A stretch of 57,751 nucleotides of DNA, filler included, from Squatina squatina (lineage: Eukaryota): NCBI GenBank assembly GCA_031763465.1. It is 3 parts of 3 records of this genome, joined end to end, with 100 filler letters (N's around TTAATTAATTAA, not from the genome) between each part and the next. Parts side by side here need not be neighbours in the genome. Positions count along the whole stretch, not along the records: positions 33,911 to 57,751 come from JARFOE010000038.1; 2 more parts are not named here. One strand, given 5' to 3'. Within the stretch, counting starts at the first letter, position 1, and every line of letters begins with the position of its first letter. Of the stretch, positions 26,440 to 56,573 are shown one piece after another. A program made the translations under genes and the position numbers. The notes under the pieces were generated by a model that saw only the letters and a program-made list of their open reading frames with translations, did no database searches and was not told where the DNA came from.

Positions 26440-27730
26440 NNNNNNNNNNNNNNNNNNNNNNNNNNNNNNNNNNNNNNNNNNNNNNNNNNNNNNNNNNNNN
26501 NNNNNNNNNNNNNNNNNNNNNNNNNNNNNNNNNNNNNNNATGTGACATGGACTTATCATGGTGTATTCTGGATATTGTAGTTCCATGGAAATAGGGTGAA
26601 AACTACAGCTCCCATAATGTATCACTCTCATTCACTTTCTCTGTCTCTCTCACTCACACACACACACAGACACACGTGCGCACAGAATCGGTCCACATGA
26701 GCTGAATATCTCCAACACTCAAACCTCAGATGAGATTTCAATTGCTGGGAATTAAGCAGAACTCAGCCTCTGAAGCACAGAGAGAGGGAAGGCCGACTTC
26801 TGCACAGGGAAATTCTTGCAAGACTTCTACTACAAATTGATTAATTCAGTGGATAAGTTTAAAAACTTTCGAACAAATTGTTCTAAATGTTAATATTCTA
26901 AATATTATTTATTTGACCATTTATACATTCCAAAAGGGTCAGAAATACAAGATGACAGTTGGAATCAATTTGAAAAAGAATTGAATTGAGGAATGTGAAT
27001 TGTGCAAATGCTTTTCTTTGCATTGGTTGATTTTCTAATCTAAATTCCAGCAAATCAACAAAGTTAAGTTTCTTATTTTAACTCGCTAGAAATGTGAGAT
27101 TTGATTTTTTTTTTCAGTTTTAGACAGATTTTATGTTCCACCCTAAATATTTAATATGTTCTGTGTTAGGCTTTACTTAAGTTGGGAAAAAAAAGTTTTA
27201 CCTATTCAATGAATACTTATATTTATATAAGTTGGAATTAACATGTTAGGACGTGAGCTTCAATGTAATGGGGGTGATGTTTGCCTTGCAGGGCCGTTCG
27301 CTAAGGTTCGGGTTGGGGGCCCCTACGTTTTTCTAGACCGGAATGGAAACATCGGTCCTGTCCCGTTTAAAAAAAATTTATATCTAGTAACCGATATTCT
27401 AAGGGGGTGACTTTTAGCACGACCATCAATAATAATCAGAATGAAGTATAGCTCTGAGCCTCTGAGCCCCTGACCCATATGAAACTGATTCGTAGGCCGT
27501 ACATTGAACATCTATGTTATAAAACCAAGAAGGGAAGAATGGGTTGAGAAAGGAATGTAAATGTGGCGGAACCAACTACTTTATTTTTTCTGTTGTAAAT
27601 TTTTTTGCATTTTCTCTGTATATTTGTAAGTTTTTTACAGCTCTCTTATTACAGCTGGATTTGAGCTTATTGTAATCGTATCTTTTACACTTAGCTTTGT
27701 AATTGTGGATTCCATTCATTCTAATTGCAG

Positions 27731-27872
27731 ATAGAACTTTTAAGACCTGTGGTGGCATCTATCCAGCAGTTCAAAATGCAGTACAAATCCTTGGGTCAGG
27801 CTCTTGATACAACAAGGCACAGCCTTCAAACAAAGAACATTTATATATCAGAAGACCCGAGTGAGAATTTGG
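27731..27872 (+). CDS. HAUS8: HAUS augmin-like complex subunit 8 exon (IELLRPVVASIQQFKMQYKSLGQALDTTRHSLQTKNIYISEDPSENL)
   Basis: ttgcag/ATA...TTGG/gtaggt, 142 nt; FK.QY....ALDTTRH.L is a conserved HAUS8 motif. Confidence 0.88.
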
Positions 27873-28799
27873 GTAGGTTTAAGTCCTTGGACAAATTCGA
27901 CCATTTGATGTGGGGTATGCAAAATTTTGGATTTAGCCNNNNNNNNNNNNNNNNNNNNNNNNNNNNNNNNNNNNNNNNNNNNNNNNNNNNNNNNNNNNNN
28001 NNNNNNNNNNNNNNNNNNNNNNNNNNNNNNNNNNNNNNNNNNNNNNNNNNNNNNNNNNNNNNNNNNNNNNNNNNNNNNNNNNNNNNNNNNNNNNNNNNNN
28101 NNNNNNNNNNNNNNNNNNNNNNNNNNNNNNNNNNNNNNNNNNNNNNNNNNNNNNNNNNNNNNNNNNNNNNNNNNNNNNNNNNNNNNNNNNNNNNNNNNNN
28201 NNNNNNNNNNNNNNNNNNNNNNNNNNNNNNNNNNNNNNNNNNNNNNNNNNNNNNNNNNNNNNNNNNNNNNNNNNNNNNNNNNNNNNNNNNNNNNNNNNNN
28301 NNNNNNNNNNNNNNNNNNNNNNNNNNNNNNNNNNNNNNNNNNNNNNNNNNNNNNNNNNNNNNNNNNNNNNNNNNNNNNNNNNNNNNNNNNNNNNNNNNNN
28401 NNNNNNNNNNNNNNNNNNNNNNNNNNNNNNNNNNNNNNNNNNNNNNNNNNNNNNNNNNNNNNNNNNNNNNNNNNNNNNNNNNNNNNNNNNNNNNNNNNNN
28501 NNNNNNNNNNNNNNNNNNNNNNNNNNNNNNNNNNNNNNNNNNNNNNNNNNNNNNNNNNNNNNNNNNNCTTTTTCTTTCGGTTTACGACTACCGACCAGTA
28601 TGTCCATTGTGTCTCATTAGTTACAGTGTCTCCACGGCACAACTATAGCTGATACCAAAGAGAGCCAATATAGACAGATGATAGGTGGACACATGCTTGC
28701 CAGAATTGGCTCCGCAGAAACTGCTTTGTTATCATGTTCCCTTTAGCAGAAGTACCTTGTTACATTAACCTGTGTCTCCTCCTCCAGCACAGTTTCAAA

Positions 28800-31713: not shown

Positions 31714-31987
31714 ATGGCCAGACTGAGAGAGGCAGACAGAGCTCAGCAGCAGGAGCAACAGCAACAACAGCAGCAGCAGCAGCCGCCCCAGCACCAGCAA
31801 AAGCCCATGAACGGAGCTGATCTCCAGCACAACCACAGCCAGATGAAGGACCACGATGCCATTAAGCTGTTCATTGGCCAGATCCCACGGAACCTGGAGG
31901 AGAATGACCTGAAGCCCCTCTTTGAGGAATTTGGGAAGATATATGAGTTAACTGTGCTGAAGGACCGATTCACAGGCATGCACAAAG
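31714..31987 (+). CDS. CELF5: CUGBP Elav-like family member 5, first coding exon (polyQ N-terminus and start of RRM1)
   Basis: MARL..QQQ...[49 protein letters not shown]/gt. The MARL start and the NCLN neighbourhood favour CELF5 over CELF3/4/6. Confidence 0.88.
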
Positions 31988-33810
31988 GTTTGAGCAGCAT
32001 CAGCACCACCTACAGCATAGGGCAGCATAGCAGTTAATGGGAAATCATAGAGTCTGGTATTTAAATAGATTTAAAAAAAAATTAATTCCTTAGTATTAAT
32101 TTTGTAATATTTCTATTCTATTTCTTAGTTGTTTTAAATTGGCAACATTTATTGATCAACTTTTATTTATTCAGTGAAAATGAAATTAAAAGACTTGAAT
32201 TAGTCAAAGCCACAAAGGTATTTGATAAAAATTACATTTAATATGTCGTCACTCAATATTTTTTTTCTTTTACACTGATTGGCAGAAAAAATATTCAGTC
32301 ATGAAAAGATTCCTTTTCAATCCAGAATGGTACTATTTGAATTTATTTTGTACAAGTACAATTTCTATGGAAGGAAGGAAATTGTTTTTAAAATTATCAG
32401 TACTATTTTAGCCTTTTTTGGCATTTCTGGAGCACTCCACAATGGCACCACCATATAAGCATACCGAGTTTATCTAATTACTATTTACACAACCCCGCAA
32501 AGATGCTTTGATCCCATTGCACCTCTTACCAACTGAATTTACTGCATCCTTGTCCACATTACTTTTAGCGAACACTTACGCCAAGTCATTGGAAAAGTGG
32601 GCACTTGTGCTATATTTGGAAGTGTCTAACAGTTTATAGTAACTGTAGCATCTGTTGAGTCACCTCCAGCACAGACTATCTCAAACTGTAAAGCTAAATT
32701 CTCAGGGCAATGGAAATTAAAATCATTCAGCATGTGTTAAACTTGTGCATTTTCATTGAATCTCTCAGTTTATCAAACTGTAAAGACAAATTGTAAAATG
32801 GGTACCAGCTTAGAGCAGTGCAAGGCAAGCAGACCTTACAGGTACTTGAGATGCTCTGCACACCAGCACCTGCATTTTAAAGAGCTGGTGGGACAGTAGG
32901 CAATTTGCTAATGTTAAAAAGGTAAAATTGTCCTGTTCAAGTTGCAGTTATACTACAACTGATGTAAATCTGAAGCAAGGTTGGATAGTCTTTTTTTTTT
33001 TTTAAAAGTAGAGATCTGCTTTCCTAAATTCAATTTGAACATCTCTGTACCAGTATTATACTCCACATAAAAGTAGACTTTTGAGTCATCTGCACCAGCA
33101 GATAGAAACTGAAAAATTGGAGATCTTTTGCATCCAGTTCTTTTTGCCTGCAATTTTCCATGCTACATTGAGTGTACACATTTTGTAACTTCATTAAGGC
33201 TGCAGACTGTATGTAAAAAATATTGAAATAAATACCTGACGTAAGTTTCCAGAATTGTATTTTTTTCCTCCACAAAGCCCAGTTGAATGGGTGCAAGGGA
33301 AGCTCAATGTGCAATGGCATGCTACCTAACCACTAAATGGACGGATGAGAGGCTGCTAAGTCTACGGGGAGGTAAGGCAGAAATAGCTGTTGATGCTTAA
33401 TATTCGTATCCAATTTCAGGGGGACTCAATTCTCAAGTATGAAAGAATATTTGCAGAAGGTAGATTGCAATATGCTGCTAGTCAGAAATATTTGGGGTAA
33501 GAAAAATGGAGGTTGCTACATCTATACTATAGACAGCAAAAGTTTGCATGTGCCTTGGATAAAAAGGAAGGTAGATGGTAAAGTGCAGCCTAAATGGCTT
33601 AAGAGTTTGACTGGAAAAATCATTTTAAAAATAAATATTTCACTTGGTATAAATAAAACAATTGCAAAAACGTAGAGATATGTATAAAATACAGATGAGG
33701 ATAACTAAATTCATGAATCGAAATACCAAAAAAGAGTATTGGAATATAGGATTGTGAAGATTATGTTAAGGTGCCAGTGATACCAGATGCTTTTTGAGTG
33801 TGGTCTTAAA

Positions 33811-39904: not shown

Positions 39905-40258
39905 CACTCTTGACCGTGGATCAGTTAGCGCGCACTCCTCTGAGTCATGGGTTCAAGTCCCTGAGACCTGAGAACTGAGGGAGTGCTGCACTGTCGCAGT
40001 TGTCGCCTTTTGGATGAGACATTAAACTGCCCTCTGGTGGGTGTAAAAGATCACACAGCACTATTTTGATGGCGAGCTGGGGACTTCTCCCAGGTATTCT
40101 GGCAAATATTTATTTATCCTTCAACCGTGGGACCTTGCTGTGTGCATTTTGGCTGCCGCATTCCCTACATTACAACAGCGACTACAATTTAAAAGTACTT
40201 CATTGGTTGTAAAGCGCTCCCAGGTTGTGAAAGGCGCTTTGGAAATGCAGCTTCTTGA
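39905..40258 (+). mobile_element. DeuSINE (SacSINE1-like), internally deleted
   Basis: tRNA-like head gggttcaagtccc; Deu-domain-like gagggagtgctgcactgtc...ggatgagacattaaac; tail gtaaagcgct...tgaaaggcgct. Confidence 0.8.
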
Positions 40259-40302
40259 AGTGTTATTAATTGCTGTTGTTTTTCTGTTCCCTCCGGTTTA
40301 GG

Positions 40303-41842
40303 ATGAAGATGCGCCATCACCGTGTGGTTCTGATGCTGTGTATGGCAGGAGTCTGTCTCATCTCCTTCATGCACTTTCTCAAGGCCCTGTCCTACATCAC
40401 ATTTTCCCGTGAGCTCTCTCCCTTTAGCCCTTCCCTCAGGTCCATCTTTGTCAACTCTCAGTTCTTCTGGAAGCAGGATGCGGTGGAGGGTGTGAGTGCA
40501 GGCCTGGGGCTGCAAACTGCGGCCGATGGCCAGCATGGAGGCTGGCCGCAGTTACACCGAGCCCTGTTTGAGCTGAAAGACGATGAGACCAAGTACTTCA
40601 TGCGGACGAAGGCCGGAGCTATCTGTTTCAAGCAGGGAACCAAAATGGAGAGCAAGATAGCAGCAGGGTCTGTGGAAGGGGCAGTATCCTGGGGCCGCAG
40701 TTCGATGGACAATCAGCTGACGCGGAAGGTGGTGGGCCGGGGGGTGTGTGGGAGGCCGAGGTGCAGGTGGGTAGGGTGCCCTTGCCTCCCAGGCTGGCAT
40801 GGGCCATACTGTGGGGTCCCCACCATGGTCCAGTATTCCAATTTGCCAAGGAAGGAGTGACTGAGCCCGCGGGCAGTGCCTCGCAGGGTCATCAACGCCA
40901 TCAACATCAACCACGCGTTTGACCTGATGGACGTCCGATTCCACGAGCTGGGCGACGTGGTCGACATTTTCATCTACGAGTCCAACTTCACTGCCTTTGG
41001 GGAGCCCAAGCCCCTGAAATTCGTGGAGATGCTGCTGAATGGGACCTACAGTTACGTGGGCCACAAGATCCTGTATGTTTTCCTGGACCATTTCCCCAGC
41101 GGTGGGCGGCAGGACGGATGGATTGCCGACGACGACCTGCGGACCTTCCTGACCCAGAACGGGATGAGTCGAATTGTGGATCTCCGGGATGACGACATCT
41201 TCATCATCGACGATGCCGATGAGATCCCAGCTCACGATGGCGTGCTCTTCCTCAAACTCTTCGACGGTTGGACCGAACCCTTCGCGTTCCACTTGCGCAA
41301 GTCGCTCTACGGTTTTTTCTGGAAGCAGCCGGGGAGCCTCGAGGTGGTGTCTGGCTGCACTGTGGCCATGCTCTTCATGGTCTATAACGGAGATGGCATT
41401 AAGCTGCGGCGGAGGGAGTACTATCTGATGCCAAACTTCCGACAGTACGAGAACAGCACGGGGCATATCCTGGTGCCCTGGGCACTAGGGAGCCCACTTC
41501 ATTTCGCAGGTTGGCACTGCTCCTGGTGCTTCAAGCCAGAGGGCATCCGCTACAAGCTACTGTCCGCGCAGAATGGAGACTTTCCCCGCTGGGGGAACTA
41601 CCAAGAGAAAAGGGAACTCAGCTACATTCAGGAGTTAATCCAGACTGGGGGCTGGTTTGATGGCACTGAGCAGGACTATTCCCCCTGCAGACCCCAAAGA
41701 ACACATGTACGCTCCCAATTATCTGATGCAAAACTTTGAGAAATACCGTTACATGCTGGAGAATCCATACAGGGAGGAGAGCTGGGGCCAGGGGGCAGCA
41801 GGGGTTGCTGAGATGTACAATCAGAGTGGGAAGATTACATAG
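40303..41842 (+). pseudogene. MGAT3: Beta-1,4-mannosyl-glycoprotein 4-beta-GlcNAc transferase (GnT-III), single coding exon with a nonsense codon and a frameshift
   Basis: Acceptor tttag/G then MKMR...CMAGVCLISFMHFLKALSYITF, CLPGWHGPYCG, PRRVINAIN, IIDDADEIP and GWHCSWCF. In-frame TGA at 40858-40860; extra T near 41680 shifts YPPADPKEHMYAP out of frame. Confidence 0.85.
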
Positions 41843-42199
41843 CGGCACTGGTAGCGAGCCCCGCACCAGAGGGTCAGGACAACTATGTGCAGCATCTACT
41901 GTCTGGATCGTGCCACTAACTGGGACCTGTGGGTTTCAAAAACTCCTCTTCTTTGGTGCTCCCACCTTGAGGCTGCGCGTCCGATCAAGCAGCTTCGACA
42001 ACAGCACCTGCACTTTCTTCACAACGCTCACCACCTTCATTTTTCCCAGAGTTTGCAGTTTGAGGCAAAGCTGGTTTCTATTCAGATTTTGATTGAAATT
42101 TCTTTTATGTACTAAACTCGTTCCTCTTCCCTGCCTCAAGGATTTGTGTGATTCAAGCTTTGCATTGTCCTGGGGCAGCAAAGCCCGCTGGCCCATGGC

Positions 42200-49230: not shown

Positions 49231-49876
49231 CAACTGTTGTGCACATTAGTATTATAATCAACACATATGGTAAAGATTACATGGAATGATCATAACCAGA
49301 TGGCGAATGTAATAAAAGGACAGCACCAGTAATCAAGGAGCCAGATATATAATGTTACCACTTTTAACAGGTTTAATTGTGAGAATATAATTATATACTT
49401 CATTTTTTTTTAAATCAGCCTTCTTGAAGGCAGCTATGTGATTGGAAATAGCAAAGCTCAAAGAATTTGAGCAGCTTTTTAAAAAAAAAGAAAAATTACA
49501 CTTCAATTATCCATATGTTGCCCACGACAACATCATTTGAAGTACAAGGGGAGATTCTGTGACCCCCCGCCCGCCCCCGCCCCCCAGGAAAAAAGCCCTT
49601 GCTGTTTGTGTGGAAAGTATCACGCTCAGGGCTGGGGGGAGCTGACCTCTGCTCATTTTAATAATCATATGCACGTTTACCATAAATGCAGAGAGCATTA
49701 TGGTTGATGGGAGGGTGATGGTGGTAGGTTGTACTGTTGGGGGGTGGGGGGATGTTCTATGTTTGTTTTTGGAAAGATGAATGATCCTTTCCTTCAGACA
49801 TGTAGTGTCCTACCTGACCATGGACTGGTGAATGCTCTGCCGTGCTGGTTTAATCATGTTCTCTGCTCCCCCTCAG

Positions 49877-50754
49877 GTGCAAGGAGTGTTCCAGCACTCT
49901 GCTCCCTGGAGCCTACAAACCTGGCGCACATTTGGGCACCTTCGTGTGTACGCACCATCGAGGACGAGTGACCGGACAGCTGCTGCGCCCTCTGGCTGGT
50001 CAGACCATGCAATCACACCATGGCCCGAGCTCCATGCCGGCACGGACACTTTCACCAGCCAGCCCACTGCCACTAGAACATTCCCAGGTGCCCACAGAAG
50101 GATCAGGAAACTGTAAACGCAGCCCAGCATTAGAGTCCGGATTAAATGAAGAGGGAAGTGGTGCACAGTCAAATAGCCCAGGACGCAGCCTTTCCCTTTC
50201 GGTTAAACAGCTTTCTGCAGCCTTTTCAGTCTCCACTGAAAACGGTCATTCTGCCACTGGCAAAACACACAAACAACTAGTGCTTTCCAACAGCTTCGGC
50301 TTCAGGGATATAGTAAAGCCTGAGGTGGAATCTCATCTTCCGGAGGAAGCACCAAGATCGGCAGATTCCTGTGTTCCCAAAGAACAGACTGAGTGTGGCG
50401 TGAGTGAGCAGCCAGTGCCAGGGCCGCAGTCTGATCTGCAGAATTCTCAGCGCGAGGAACAGCAAGCAGCACACGCGGAGATGGGCATCGCCACAGAGAA
50501 TGCAGAGAGCACCAAAACCTCGGGGTCTCCAGCCAGGTGCACTGGCGAAAGCCCAGATACAAGCCTAGCTTCCGTGGACATAGAAACTTCTGACGAGAAG
50601 CTTAAGACTCCTGTTCCTGTTCCGAGGAAAACGGTTGACTCTGCATCGTCGCCCGTGGCAACGCCGCGTCCAGTACCTCGACCACGGGTTAGCTTTGGTA
50701 GTGGAACTAATGAAACATCTGTCCAGAAGTCGGAGAGCAGTGTGCTGGTAAATG
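49877..50754 (+). CDS. MICALL1: MICAL-like protein 1, large exon (second half of LIM domain plus Pro/Ser-rich linker)
   Basis: cctcag/G TGC gives CKECSSTLLPGAYKPGAHLGTFVCTHH; the frame stays open with PVPVPRK/PRPVPRPR motifs to the donor AATG/gtatgt. Confidence 0.88.
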
Positions 50755-51444
50755 GTATGTGATGCTTCTACAATAACAGCCAATTTTATTGAGACAGCGC
50801 TTTCAATGTAGAAAATACATCCCAAAGCATGTCCGAGTGAGGAAAAGAGTGGACGCCAAACTAAAGTACAAGAGTGTAGCAGGCTCGCACAAAGGTTTGG
50901 NNNNNNNNNNNNNNNNNNNNNNNNNNNNNNNNNNNNNNNNNNNNNNNNNNNNNNNNNNNNNNNNNNNNNNNNNNNNNNNNNNNNNNNNNNNNNNNNNNNN
51001 CCTGCCCTTCCCTCTCCTCCCTGAGCCTTACCCATCTCTCTCTATCAGGAAAGAGAGGTGCTGAGTGCTTGTTCAGTCCTAGTGCATCAGCCCGGCCCCT
51101 CTGCCCTGGCCCTGGCCACTGTTTCCACTCAGAACTAGAGGATTCAATCGGGGCCTGAGAGCAGCAACGTGTCACAACCCCCAGAGCGGTTACTGACGGG
51201 AAGGCTGACCAGTAGCAGGCAGTTTCCAGGGGCTGCCAGCCAGTGGTGACCAGCTCTTTTGGATCTAAATGCAGCTTGCCATATCCTGACCGCTGAGTGA
51301 GGGAGTTATAGACAGGTGGTTTGCTATAATTACTGTTTGTGGCAGTAGTACCCAGGAAGCTGTGTGACACCACTCCCCCCACCCCGGCCTTGTGACTTTG
51401 TGTGATGCCTGTTGTAGTAATGTGAGCCCTGTCCTATTTCCCAG

Positions 51445-51518
51445 TTTCAAGCAGCAGAACCTGGAGGAACGGCAGGCAGATGTGGAGTATGAATTGCGCT
51501 GTCTACTCAACAAACCAG
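51445..51518 (+). CDS. MICALL1: MICALL1 bMERB/Rab-binding domain exon ([24 protein letters not shown])
   Basis: 74 nt, ttcccag/T...CCAG/gtcagt. Confidence 0.92.
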
Positions 51519-51606
51519 GTCAGTGACTGCTACAGAGTGCATTCGGGATTTATCTCCCGCAGTCCCAGCTCCCTCAGGCTGATCCCCGCTTCAATTGTCT
51601 CTGCAG

Positions 51607-51721
51607 AGAAAGATTGGACAGATGAGGATCGAGCGCGGGAGGCAGAGTTGATGCAGGAGTTGATTACAGTCATCGAACAAAGAAACGCCATCATCAACAG
51701 CCTGGACGAGGACAGGCAACG
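51607..51721 (+). CDS. MICALL1: MICALL1 bMERB exon ([39 protein letters not shown])
   Basis: 115 nt, ctgcag/AG...CG/gtaatc; an 88-nt intron separates it from the previous exon; phase consistent. Confidence 0.92.
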
Positions 51722-51754
51722 GTAATCTCATCAGTAAATTAGGGTGCTGGGATA

Positions 51755-51914
51755 TTGGGTACAGGATAGTGGGGCACAGGCTTCCTGTGGGTGAGGGGCA
51801 CAGATAGTGGGGTACACGCTTCCTGTCTGGGTGAGGGGCACAAGATAGTGGGGTACACACTTCCTGTTAGTGAGGGGCACAGGATAGTGGGGTACATGCT
51901 TCCTGTCTGGGGAT
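51755..51914. repeat. About 40-bp minisatellite (gtgaggggcacaggatagtggggtacacgcttcctgt..)
   Basis: About 4 tandem units running into a gap. Confidence 0.9.
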
Positions 51915-53362
51915 NNNNNNNNNNNNNNNNNNNNNNNNNNNNNNNNNNNNNNNNNNNNNNNNNNNNNNNNNNNNNNNNNNNNNNNNNNNNNNNNNNNNNN
52001 NNNNNNNNNNNNNNATTCAGCATGTTGAGGGCGAGGGGAGCTGGCACTAATCTGACACAGTAATTGTCTTCACACTTAATCAGTTAGGGAGTAACTTTCT
52101 GTTCTGTCTTGTGAAAGGGTGTTTGCACATGAACACATCGCACCACCATGCAACATAACGTCAGTTTAGATTCTCACATCAACCAGACTTTTTCAGGGAC
52201 TTTTAGATTTGTGTTTTGAAACTTAACTCTTAGCTTCTGTAGATTGGATGAAACACATGGTCTGAATACTGGACTGAGCACTGGTATATACACTCTTACT
52301 CTGATTAACACAATTTGTCTTTTGAGATTTTGTAGGTTCTTAGCAGTAATTATATTTCTACCTAACATACAGGAACAGCTGCCAAAAAAAGCCTTAATTC
52401 AATTTATTGTCAAATCTTTTGTTCAAAGCATTTTTTGTACGTATTCAAGGGGAATATTGGTGCCATTTCTTCCTATTAGTCTGTTAGCTATAGTATTGCT
52501 TTCATAGGTTGAATTGGACGGTTTTGCTGATGCAGATATTTTCTTTCGCTGTTATTCTGCCTTACCTATTTGTATATAATATTTATTGAAACACACAAGC
52601 ACTGTTCTAAAGCTATATTATTCTGCTAACAAAATGGGTAAATTTGGGACCAATAAAATGGAAAGTTGTCCAAGTGTGTGACTGGTTTATGGACGGGAGT
52701 GGCGGTTGTGATTGAGAATTCATCAGTTCTACGCCACATGTCCTGGGANNNNNNNNNNNNNNNNNNNNNNNNNNNNNNNNNNNNNNNNNNNNNNNNNNNN
52801 NNNNNNNNNNNNNNNNNNNNNNNNNNNNNNNNNNNNNNNNNNNNNNNNGGGCAAATTGCCCGTCTCTCTGCCCGCGGAGGCCCTTTCGTTTCAGATGCGG
52901 TGGATTTGCCAAGGGAAATCTTGACCGGTTGCAAGTTCTGGGTTTTGGTGCCTGTGGGGCCCCTACGGGCGCGGGCGCACCTCGTACACACACACAGCGA
53001 CCACGGTTTCAGGGCCAATCTATTCCCTTCATCATCTCAAAAACCTCAATCAGATCAGCCCTAAATCTGTGCTTCTCTAAAATGTTGAGTCCCAGCTCTT
53101 CTAACCTACCTTTGCTACTGAGATGCTTTACAGTGGGAATTAGTCTCGAGGCCCTCTTATTTGATTATTCAGCAATGTTTCACCTTTTGAATGTTTACAT
53201 CACTCCTGCGCTGTGCAGCCATTTAAGTTACGCCGCTGAACTCAACCTTTGACCTTGCATCTTAGGCCGACTAATTGGAGAAGGAATGTTCCTTCAGCTG
53301 ATCCTCAATGTTTAAGGACCTGTCCTAATTTTAAGCTGATTAATTTTCTCTCGCTCCTCCAG

Positions 53363-53576
53363 GTCTGGGACTGGCCTTGAACTTTCAGCCTTCTCTCATT
53401 ATGCTGGGCAGGTACTTTGATAAAAGGAGGCCACTGGCCAATGGACTGGCAGCCGCTGGGAGCCCAGTGTTCCTCAGCGCACTCTCCCCTTTCGGCCAAA
53501 TCCTGCTGGATTACTATGGCTGGCGAGGGGCCTTCCTCATCATGGGGGGCTTGTTACTCAACTGCTGCATGTGTGG
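53363..53576 (+). CDS. SLC16A8: Monocarboxylate transporter 3, partial exon cut by a gap
   Basis: ctccag/GT gives [43 protein letters not shown]...[20 protein letters not shown]3/4 type; adjacency to PICK1 favours SLC16A8 over SLC16A3. Confidence 0.85.
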
Positions 53577-53889
53577 NNNNNNNNNNNNNNNNNNNNNNNN
53601 NNNNNNNNNNNNNNNNNNNNNNNNNNNNNNNNNNNNNNNNNNNNNNNNNNNNNNNNNNNNNNNNNNNNNNNNNNNNGGGATTACCAATAGCTATGGAAGT
53701 AGGAGGCCTGGGGAAATTGAGAAAATAGGAGATGGGGCGAGTTTCGATATTATACAGGAACAGCTTGGTAAAAAAGCGACTGGGAGCTGAAAGCTCAGGG
53801 CTCCAGGGTAGAACTGGACCACTGAAAGCCAGTCAATAATGTGTTGGCCCTACAACATGTATAATATTACATTTGTTTAATTTACTGGA

Positions 53890-54245
53890 GTCGACCATTC
53901 CAACGTTCTACTGGCCAGCCTTCCATCTTCCACCCTCAATGAACTTGAGCTCATCCAAAACTCTGCTGCCTGTATCGTAACTCGCACCGAGTCCCGTTCA
54001 CCCATCACCCTGTGCTTGCTGACCTTCATTGGCTCCCGGTCTACCAACAAGGTTCCCGCTAAGCTACGCGGCTGCGCAGCAGTCTGGAGATCCTGCGCAG
54101 GCTGCTTAACAGTTTTTGAATGGGAGATTTTGCGCATGCACAAAATTTTAAACCACACACCCAAAACAAATTAGGATGAACATTGTCCACCAACACATTG
54201 AATTGAAAATTCTCATCCTCCATGGCCTCACCCCTTCCTATCTGA
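53890..54245 (+). mobile_element. L2 LINE ORF2 fragment interrupted by a MITE
   Basis: HSNVLLASLPSSTLNELELIQNSAACIVTRTESRSPIT, resuming after 54185 with ..IELKILIL. Confidence 0.8.
54048..54185. mobile_element. hAT-type MITE, copy 2
   Basis: TIRs caaggttcccgctaa / ttaggatgaacattg; 8-bp TSD tctaccaa / tccaccaa; body similar to 24739-24911. Confidence 0.8.
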
Positions 54246-54829
54246 ACTCAGCATTGTGAGTGCTCCTAACCCGATAAGGTGAGCCCTGTCTGTTCTCTGA
54301 AAGCAGTAGCTCGGGAGCCTGGCTGTCAAAATGAATGGATCAAATTACACATTACGAAGATTTTGATTACTCTCCAGCAGACACGATCAAATTACACATT
54401 ACAGGCAAACTGACAGGTGTATTGTGTCCTCCAAGGGGACCAATCAGAAATGTGGTGTTGCAAGTAGACATGACCAGCATTGTTAGCTTCACACACGCGT
54501 ACAGGGCAGTGTCGGAGTCCCGAGATTGGGAGCTGTGGACCTGCAGGTAACTGGTGCAAGGAGCTTGCTACAAGCTGGACTACACACCCCACCTCGAGAG
54601 GCTCAGGCAGAAAGGATGCACTAAACAGGAGACAGTGAAACAACTACGCACCTGTACAAAAGGGCATGCCCATAAAGTATTGGTATTTATCTCAAGGAGC
54701 TGACAGGGATCAACGGTCGGGTCCATGGGAGACATAAATAAAAGATCATCACTCCTACTATACACGGCACATTTCTGTCCTGATTTAGTGTAAGGGGCTC
54801 ATTTCCCCCTCCAGACAGGAAAAGATATT

Positions 54830-55050
54830 CTATTCATCATCAAATAGTTTCTCTCCGTTTTCCTCGTTCTCCTTCTCCTCCTCTTCCTCTGCGTCTGTGT
54901 AAATATCCTTCGGACTGTAGTTCAACATTGTTTTTGTCAAGTCGACCTCGATGGGAAAGACGTCGGCATCTTTTAAGACAGCGTAACACTCGTCATAGTA
55001 CTTGGACATGGCGGAGACAAAGCGCTGGAGCTGGAACACGATGTCTTGCA
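54830..55050 (-). CDS. PICK1: PICK1 last coding exon (end of BAR domain and acidic tail)
   Basis: cag/TG CAA gives VQDIVFQLQRFVSAMSKYYDECYAVLKDADVFPIEVDL...EEEEE...DDE followed by a stop. Confidence 0.95.
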
Positions 55051-55153
55051 CTGNNNNNNNNNNNNNNNNNNNNNNNNNNNNNNNNNNNNNNNNNNNNNNN
55101 NNNNNNNNNNNNNNNNNNNNNNNNNNNNNNNNNNNNNNNNNNNNNNNNNNNNN

Positions 55154-55376
55154 GCGTTGCACGGCCCAGTGTGCAGCACTGCTCCACTCACCGCCCCGCC
55201 TGCTGCCGATTGCGCTCCAGGAAGGAAGTGGAGTTTCTGATTTAGTGCTTTATTTCCTTCCTGGAGCGTTACCCCCAAATTTTTTTAAAATTGAAAAAGA
55301 TTAGCGCCTGGCGCTAATTTTTCTACTTTTAAAAGTTAGCCCCCACAACGGGATGCTCCTGAATTTCTCCCCCTAA
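55154..55376. mobile_element. GC-rich, hairpin-rich MITE-like fragment
   Basis: Perfect 15-bp inverted repeat (55213-55227 / 55254-55268) and 9-bp palindrome arms (55300-55318); truncated by a gap. Confidence 0.45.
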
Positions 55377-55583
55377 GATTTTCACCCACAGTTCTACCTT
55401 CAGCAGTACTGAGAATACCAAGCAACCATATCTCAGTGGGAAAGGGTGAACCAACACATGAAGTGATGAGGGAGATGTGAACCAGAATGAGAAGAGAGCC
55501 TTTCACTCCAGCAATGGGGGGGCGGGGAGACTGACAGAGACAAGTTAGCTTATTTCAGGAGAGGACGTATTGGGTTGCTTTAC

Positions 55584-55695
55584 CTGCACGATGTATAAGC
55601 AGGGACAGTACTGGGCCCCTCCGCCAATGCTGATCCCAATTAAATTCTGAGAATCCTTTTTAAGTGTCACTGTCCCGGGCACAGTCGGAATTCCC
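55584..55695 (-). CDS. PICK1: PICK1 PDZ-domain exon (GIPTVPGTVTLKKDSQNLIGISIGGGAQYCPCLYIVQ)
   Basis: 112 nt, atcag/G...CAG/gtaaag; PDZ carboxylate loop LIGI and CPC motif present. Confidence 0.96.
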
Positions 55696-55777
55696 CTGAT
55701 CAAAACAAAGGGATTAAAAAGTTGATGTTTATTACACTGACTTATAAGATCTTTTTCATCGGCCACGGCTGTGACAG

Positions 55778-55994
55778 CAGCCCATTCACTCAATGGGTAA
55801 CCCCGTCCCCCCAGCCCATTCACTCAATGAGTAACCCCCTTCCCCCAGTCCATTCACTCAATGAGTAACCTCCTCCCCAGCCTATTCACTCAATGAATAA
55901 CCTCCTCCCCAGCCCATTCACTCAATGGGTAACCCCCTTCCCCCAGCCCATTCACTCAATGGGTAACCCCCTCCCCCCAGCCCATTCACTCAAT
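55778..55994. repeat. 32-34-bp minisatellite (cagcccattcactcaatgggtaacccc..cccc)
   Basis: 6-7 tandem units in a PICK1 intron, running into a gap. Confidence 0.92.
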
Positions 55995-56109
55995 NNNNNN
56001 NNNNNNNNNNNNNNNNNNNNNNNNNNNNNNNNNNNNNNNNNNNNNNNNNNNNNNNNNNNNNNNNNNNNNNNNNNNNNNNNNNNNNNNNNNNNNNCCCCCT
56101 GCGACTCAC

Positions 56110-56308
56110 GTTCTCGCTTGGTGTCGCGGTGCTGCCAGCTGTAGAAGTTCAGCAGTTCTTTCTGAGCCCTCTTGCGTTTCTCGCGCTGGATTGCCCGCAG
56201 GTTACCCGCTTCGGTCCGGGGGATGCCCGGGCGCCGCCCTTTCCTGGTCACCTTCACCCAGCCATCCTCGTCTGGGACGCCGTCTGCAGCCTCCGCGAGT
56301 GCCTCCAC
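56110..56308 (-). CDS. RRP7A: Ribosomal RNA-processing protein 7A exon
   Basis: 199 nt, tcacag/GTG...GAAC/gtgagt; GVPDEDGWVKVTRKGRRP...KELLNFYSWQHRDTKRE matches the RRP7 C-terminal domain. Confidence 0.95.
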
Positions 56309-56449
56309 CTGTGAACAGAGTGAGCGGCGAGAGTAACCGCATGAACAGAGTGAGCGGCCCGAGACAAACCGCGGGGACGGAGCGAGACCTCGTGTCCCAC
56401 GTCCACTGAGAGACATCACCCACCCCCTCTCTGCCCCCAAACCCCGTAC

Positions 56450-56547
56450 CTCCGCCACCCGCTGGTCGTGTTGCTGCATGAACTGGTCAACGTCATTTTG
56501 CAGTTCCCCAGGGTTGATGATCTTGGAGCAATAAATCCGGATCCACT
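56450..56547 (-). CDS. RRP7A: RRP7A preceding exon (WIRIYCSKIINPGELQNDVDQFMQQHDQRVAE)
   Basis: 98 nt, ttcccag/AG TGG...GAG/gtacgg; aligns to recalled human KWISDY...EVDTFMEAYDQKIAE; phase 0 into the next exon. Confidence 0.9.
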
Positions 56548-56573
56548 CTGGGAAAGAAGGAATGGGTCAGGAT

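Follow-up and report, generated by a model that had tools for sequence, protein, structure and literature searches.

A disrupted and probably sole MGAT3 gene in the draft genome of Squatina squatina

The window analysed in this work, a stretch of 57,751 nucleotides joined from three parts of the draft genome of Squatina squatina (assembly G000), carries in its third part the coding region of MGAT3, a gene of family GT17, in a broken state. According to the available text of PMC4328647, its product, GnT-III, is the only enzyme for the bisecting linkage, and mice null for it are healthy and fertile; bisecting GlcNAc represses branching and terminal epitopes, as stated in the accessible part of PMC13696804. 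A first-pass annotation proposed that the gene had recently become a pseudogene at its syntenic locus. The locus raises the question of whether its lesions are real, whether an intact copy is kept elsewhere in the genome and, if not, for how long the shark may have lived with a dead gene.

By sequence comparison the gene appears to be the orthologue of shark MGAT3. A protein search with it gave 356 matches at E ≤ 1e-20, shark and ray MGAT3 being the top ones; identity amounted to 90-92% with the closest intact shark protein, P0002 (UniRef100_UPI00398F5528), and to 85, 83 and 71% with the proteins of Chiloscyllium, Leucoraja and Callorhinchus, respectively. The piece behind the premature stop scored 91.8 bits with the Glyco_transf_17 profile (PF04724; cut-off 26), and the Pfam scan of the piece before it matched no family. 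In a tree of 31 rows, some of them labelled through accession matches, the sequence fell inside a clade of 12 shark rows (support 98/97) and outside the 10 galeomorph rows (Heterodontus, catshark, Mustelus, lamniform and carpet-shark records; clade support 100/99), pairing weakly with P0002 (92/74); this topology agrees with what we take to be the species tree and suggests a shark of squalomorph-like affinity. Common to the window gene and the intact shark genes (P0002, Heterodontus XP_067875433.1, Carcharodon XP_041034027.1 and Cetorhinus XP_078388273.1), the closest two of which are 85-92% identical to it, are GT17 membership, the MKMR start, the signal anchor, the DDADE motif and a shark-specific IPAHDG.

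The features of the locus are collected in Table 1. Shark and ray isoforms with an N-terminal extension often have Arg just before MKMRR, which fits an AG/G acceptor, and the acceptor of the window was rightly described as intact by the first-pass annotation. The view that the gene is not a retrocopy was borne out as well: the coding region is immediately preceded by an intron end that carries the acceptor and an interspersed repeat, and the match of the organism B contig (see below) ends at the acceptor. The repeat (window 40127-40218, in the intron) is of high copy number, and thousands of contigs from the four runs compared below land there. The AlphaFold model of P0002 predicts a helix at residues 2-33; this model is weak (mean pLDDT 52) and served solely to order the core strands. 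No solved structure was matched in a sequence search with MGAT3. The Glu of DDADE is residue 323/324 in two mammal-like proteins of 535/537 amino acids, and it likely corresponds, by a presumed match of numbering, to E320 of human GnT-III, proposed as catalytic in the accessible part of PMC13696804.

In the window gene as assembled, no single frame stays open from the signal anchor through the whole catalytic domain, and three separate disabling lesions (stop, frameshift and codon deletion) were counted. The premature TGA lies just ahead of strand 1 of the predicted nucleotide-binding core; behind it the MGAT3 reading goes on in the same frame up to 41679. Most of the damage listed in the first-pass annotation was found as described, namely the stop in place of Arg ahead of the catalytic domain, whose proposed CpG origin (CGA rather than AGA) is putative, the extra base with the change of frame at it, and the replacements NHEFD>NHAFD (E205A) and ADDYLR>ADDDLR (Y278D) at invariant columns. 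The change VCESNF>IYESNF is a real lesion but more than the substitution it was taken for, being most simply read as the loss of one Ile codon plus Cys>Tyr; in the weak model of P0002 this deletion and Y278D map to a core strand and a helix. IPARDG>IPAHDG had to be dropped as a sign of decay, since all 11 intact shark proteins have His here, which is the usual state in sharks.

Table 1. Features of the MGAT3 locus, with positions along the window
Feature	Position	Strand	Basis
MGAT3 (GT17) coding region, broken	40303..41842	+	G000:C38:1165860-1167388
Splice acceptor, pyrimidine tract and AG, intact	40270..40301	+	Sequence; organism B contig match begins at 40301
Remaining open frame, 185 codons: signal anchor, stem, loop	40303..40857	+	No GT17 match
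R5H	40315..40317	+	Arg in 30/30 intact proteins
R154C	40762..40764	+	Arg in 22/22 chondrichthyan proteins; CGC in organism A and B contigs
T183R	40849..40851	+	Thr in 30/30
Premature TGA, codon 186	40858..40860	+	Arg in 30/30 intact proteins; frame from ATG 40303
E205A	40915..40917	+	Glu in 30/30
L209M, new in-frame ATG behind the stop	40927..40929	+	Leu in 30/30
Loss of one codon and of the invariant Cys in CESNF	40969..40977	+	Predicted strand 2
Y278D	41134..41136	+	Tyr in 30/30
DDADE motif, unchanged (DxD and likely catalytic Glu)	41209..41223	+	Alignment to intact proteins
Extra base, frame shift before PPADPKEHMYAP	41680..41680	+	Base absent from organism B contig
TGA closing the shifted frame	41737..41739	+	Frame reading
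Ancestral TAG of the conserved tail (PPADPKEHMYAP to TAG)	41840..41842	+	Frame differs from upstream part

None of the ten sequencing runs checked contained half of the sampled window words; four of them (X1, X3, X4 and X5) were compared to the window at 80% likeness, where X4 and X5 barely cover MGAT3, X1 has no cover beyond 40803, and gaps in cover are uninformative. No RNA run turned up for the stretch either, a result silent on expression. In organism B (run X3) a single contig of 2310 nt spans 40301-41965 with 126 other letters, its match beginning at the acceptor as in a spliced transcript. Compared to the window, it has three more bases behind 40969 and one base fewer at 41680; since the contig lacks both indels, they are to be placed on the window's side. 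Among 40 of the 147 difference rows (40333-40791), 24 letters were synonymous and 16 non-synonymous, and for the codons of these rows dS was about 0.27 and dN/dS about 0.18. This comparison therefore points to selection during most of the history shared with organism B. Organism A (run X1) is represented by five short contigs over 40490-40783, 90-98% alike, which are shallow and mixed, their cover ending short of the stop site. Organisms A and B have a common other letter at 7 sites among the rows listed, organism A being ancestral at D51, K137, S149 and R154; as the two agree, at least D51N, K137N, S149C and R154C are derived in the window lineage, R154C being a CpG transition since both relatives keep the Arg codon CGC. 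Two of the organism A contigs (depth 7.75 and 3.1) have an extra base behind 40738, absent in the window and in organism B, with no compensating gap within the covered span, and one contig has 29 unaligned letters, placed beyond 40783 from contig overlaps.

Signs of decay were looked for at columns invariant among 30 intact proteins (22 chondrichthyan and 8 from bony vertebrates; apparently one isoform per locus, from the members listed). The window gene is changed at 7 of 223 such columns (R5H, T183R, the stop at R186, E205A, L209M, the Cys of CESNF and Y278D). The intact shark genes differ from it in having open frames of about 504-530 residues, with no stop, frameshift or codon deletion, and 0-2 private changes each by the same leave-one-out count (3 in total in 11 sharks). 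Rays gave 0-4 private changes; Rhinoraja had 4 of 227 on an end branch of 0.22, and Callorhinchus 7 of 230 on an end branch of 0.31, seven times that of the window gene, which is not long (0.045 vs 0.055 for P0002). Apparently, selection on the window gene has been relaxed, though the hits are unevenly spread: at shark-invariant columns they number 5/112 in codons 1-185, 6/73 in codons 186-278 (pooled, 11 of 185 shark-invariant codons in 1-278), 0/164 in codons 279-459 and 2/28 in the tail. For the longest stretch without a hit, a test picked after seeing the data gave p = 0.006-0.016, and the pattern could be due to chance, to an uneven mutation rate, to gene conversion or to the collapse of a second copy. 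Selection kept on the 185-residue stub was considered and rejected, the 5 hits in 112 columns ruling against it.

With 6-7 hits in about 490 non-synonymous sites the change amounts to 1.2-1.4% (95% range 0.45-2.9%), i.e., about one tenth of half the dS to organism B, a rough ratio, as numerator and dS come from different gene parts. On the best reading, MGAT3 would have been non-functional over roughly the final tenth of its own branch. Dating in years was attempted and discarded: a pedigree rate of 7e-10 per generation led to about 2e7 generations, which is not credible, and only a relative age is therefore given. The loss, called recent in the first-pass annotation, does appear to be late on its branch, but "recent" holds only in this relative sense, because 1.2-1.4% change at invariant codons exceeds the load of fresh polymorphism.

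DNA, protein and profile searches, in which only the best candidates were scored, found one GT17 locus in the assembly; a second candidate (25% identity, E = 0.2, with a stop) was discarded as noise. The paralogue on which the lineage was supposed possibly to rely was thus not found in this incomplete assembly, nor was an alternative contig (second allele) for MGAT3 in the assembly or an internal duplication in its block. The shark and ray cluster members listed look like isoforms, with one locus per species. MGAT3 sits alone in an N-free block of 3,673 bases between 100-N gaps, and its placement on scaffold C38 rests on N gaps; from the uniformity of the gaps, this scaffold may be reference-guided. 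The syntenic position named in the first-pass annotation is accordingly tentative. Open frames around MGAT3 on C38 matched DEAD, Rad51, HTH_SUN2, bMERB, MFS_1, RRP7 and Ras in Pfam scans, one of which covered 140 of the 200 frames listed, and we take the neighbours to be DDX17, DMC1, SUN2, MICALL1, SLC16A8 and RRP7A of human 22q13, a block with which these matches agree. Closely packed exons between 100-N gaps at window 49854-56566, with Pfam support for bMERB, MFS_1 and RRP7, presumably belong to genes resembling MICALL1, an MFS transporter (SLC16A8-like), PICK1 and RRP7A. Downstream on C38, at L034:8995-9999 and L035:3-3008 (minus strand), there are long frames of 335, 348 and 575 codons with no Pfam match. 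In the second part of the window, frames at 27725-27938 and about 31850-32010 presumably represent a HAUS8 exon and the first RRM exon of a CELF gene. TAB1, the neighbour of MGAT3 in a whale-shark record, has its exons on three unplaced contigs of the assembly. Two RefSeq models, P0129 and P0131 (XP_048473271.1 and XP_048473272.1; 939 and 899 residues), were also met; in the former, TAB1-like sequence and the MGAT3 exon are fused in one frame, owing either to a read-through transcript or to an annotation artefact.

Other genes show how such an assembly, split into 1.15 million contigs, is to be read. MGAT2 is present only with its about 165 N-terminal codons (the first third) on a 715-base contig (L006:1-715, G000:C961079); the assembly is thus incomplete, and a second MGAT3 could therefore be missing. 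A tandem repeat lies directly 5' of the MGAT2 start on this contig. The frames of MGAT1 (484 codons) and RAG1 (835 codons, 139 of them unknown) are open and contain N gaps; neither stops nor shifts were seen in three TAB1 exons aligned to P0129, and 16 of 18 GT31 matches are free of stops. One exception is the B3GNT2 orthologue (L013:1357-2544, minus strand; G000:C115:14716176-14716757; it matches the B3GNT2 chain in PDB 8sz3 at E = 2e-173), which has a lone TAG at codon 212 and no further change in 49 core columns, the control being limited to these because the orthologue search gave only distant representatives. Isolated stops therefore occur in this assembly, and the TAG may stem from an error, from a single allele or from a very recent loss of what would be a second N-glycan enzyme, unlike the pattern of MGAT3. 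The other exception, which we infer to be a B3GALT5-like gene (L009:1300-2331, minus strand; G000:C462009), has one TGA in the catalytic domain with intact paralogues (L008, L010) alongside, and is likely an ordinary dead duplicate. Next to one GT31 gene, on the opposite strand, lies an ARF-like small GTPase frame (L011:2101-2763, plus strand).

Consensus errors of a low-coverage draft, with MGAT3 intact in the animal, would agree with the fragmentation of the genome, with the two GT31 stops, and with the fact that no run of this species was among the ten checked. Such errors would, however, have to supply a stop, two indels and at least five invariant-site changes within 1.5 kb, as compared to 2 stops in about 5,500 control codons, whose N gaps could hide frameshifts; even if both control stops are taken as base errors, P = 0.007 for at least 6 hits in 490 sites. 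Moreover, one indel is a clean triplet and the other a single base that lies in no long run, and R154C is a CpG transition, as expected of a germline change, so that we regard an artefact as quite improbable. A null allele segregating beside a working one appears very improbable: a haploid consensus would not show a second allele, and mice survive without the enzyme (available text of PMC4328647), but no alternative contig was found, and the diversity of the epaulette shark given in the accessible part of PMC10587355, 0.2%, is far below the 1.2-1.4% by which invariant codons have changed here. Considering these data, MGAT3 of the window is very probably a real pseudogene.

Whether it was the only copy is a separate matter. 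The gene might be a decayed duplicate, the intact MGAT3 being missing from the draft, partly collapsed into this contig or converting it, in which case the enzyme would be kept. The incompleteness of the assembly, the undamaged codons 279-459 with the intact DDADE, and the dependence of the C38 placement on N gaps speak for such a copy, as do overlapping X1 contigs that differ from the window by 2/94 and 8/107 letters and could reflect two copies or a mixed sample. It is nonetheless unlikely, because no second match, even partial, was obtained by DNA, protein or profile search among the best candidates scored; the frameshift and two tail changes sit beyond the clean stretch; the listed relatives look single-locus, and the gene tree follows the presumed species tree. 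A unitary pseudogene, i.e., the loss of the sole copy, is thus the probable state, and the animal would then likely be unable to make bisecting GlcNAc; this claim of loss rests on one fragmented assembly.

If so, a first disabling hit would have been followed by a lapse of selection and by further changes at positions fixed in other vertebrates. Should the gene still be transcribed, the product would be a 185-residue membrane stub devoid of the GT-A domain. Readthrough of the TGA would not rescue the enzyme, as the frameshift, the deletion, E205A and Y278D would persist, and neither would a restart at Met209, because the signal anchor and the first core strand would be missing. A transcript with no later exon junction could escape junction-dependent decay, and no later junction is known for MGAT3. 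The prediction is that the N-glycans, those of brain and kidney included, carry no bisecting GlcNAc and are therefore branched and terminally extended more readily. By analogy with knockout mice, the loss of MGAT3 is likely tolerated. Among the Mgat3-null and truncated-GnT-III mice (Priatel 1997 and Bhattacharyya 2002, cited in PMC4328647), all of which carry laboratory alleles, the nulls likewise survive without the enzyme, and those with truncated GnT-III show, in the available text of the same article, neurological traits absent from nulls, with which a truncated shark stub might be compared. In a search for truncated shark proteins, the N-terminal piece gave no match at E ≤ 1e-30 among 100 candidates, and the C-terminal piece gave 23 matches, none of them named shark and none above 78% identity.

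The accessible part of a survey of vertebrate MGAT3 (PMC13696804; 99 sequences, whale shark and Callorhinchus included) describes orthologues of this same enzyme, broken here, as broadly maintained across vertebrates; its sole mention of pseudogenisation concerns MGAT4, and its three text supplements contain neither "Squalus" nor "shark". Branching genes of N-glycans have been lost or inactivated in some vertebrate lineages in the case of MGAT4 (GT54; accessible part of PMC12616123), similarly to the window gene, but those are members of a multi-gene family, whereas MGAT3 is described as encoding the sole enzyme for its linkage. No report of vertebrate MGAT3 loss or of data on shark bisecting GlcNAc was found among the matches listed in literature searches, though subscription papers and the supplementary tables of genome-wide gene-loss screens may include such a loss. 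As far as searched, this would be an ordinary event of a known kind, lineage-specific gene loss, in a gene new to it.

The loss may extend beyond this species. In organism A, the closer relative, MGAT3 may be broken as well, and its frameshift is, as a hint, consistent with a loss that preceded the split, each lineage decaying on its own afterwards. It is a tentative proposal that MGAT3 was lost in the common ancestor of a clade of non-galeomorph sharks comprising this species and organism A, and that the clade does without bisecting GlcNAc; if true, it would offer a naturally occurring vertebrate knockout for a main N-glycan of the brain type. If the stop in B3GNT2 is also real, the extension of N-glycans has perhaps been eroded further. 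In Xenopus brain, bisected complex and bisected hybrid forms make up 25.5% and 7.3% of N-glycans, similarly to mouse (accessible part of PMC13696804). Since null mice are nearly normal, the reason for which MGAT3 is retained is an open question, and a lineage that has been without the gene since long ago would, if the loss is true, make it testable. For the shark itself, the loss would mean that a sugar modification common on vertebrate brain proteins has likely disappeared.
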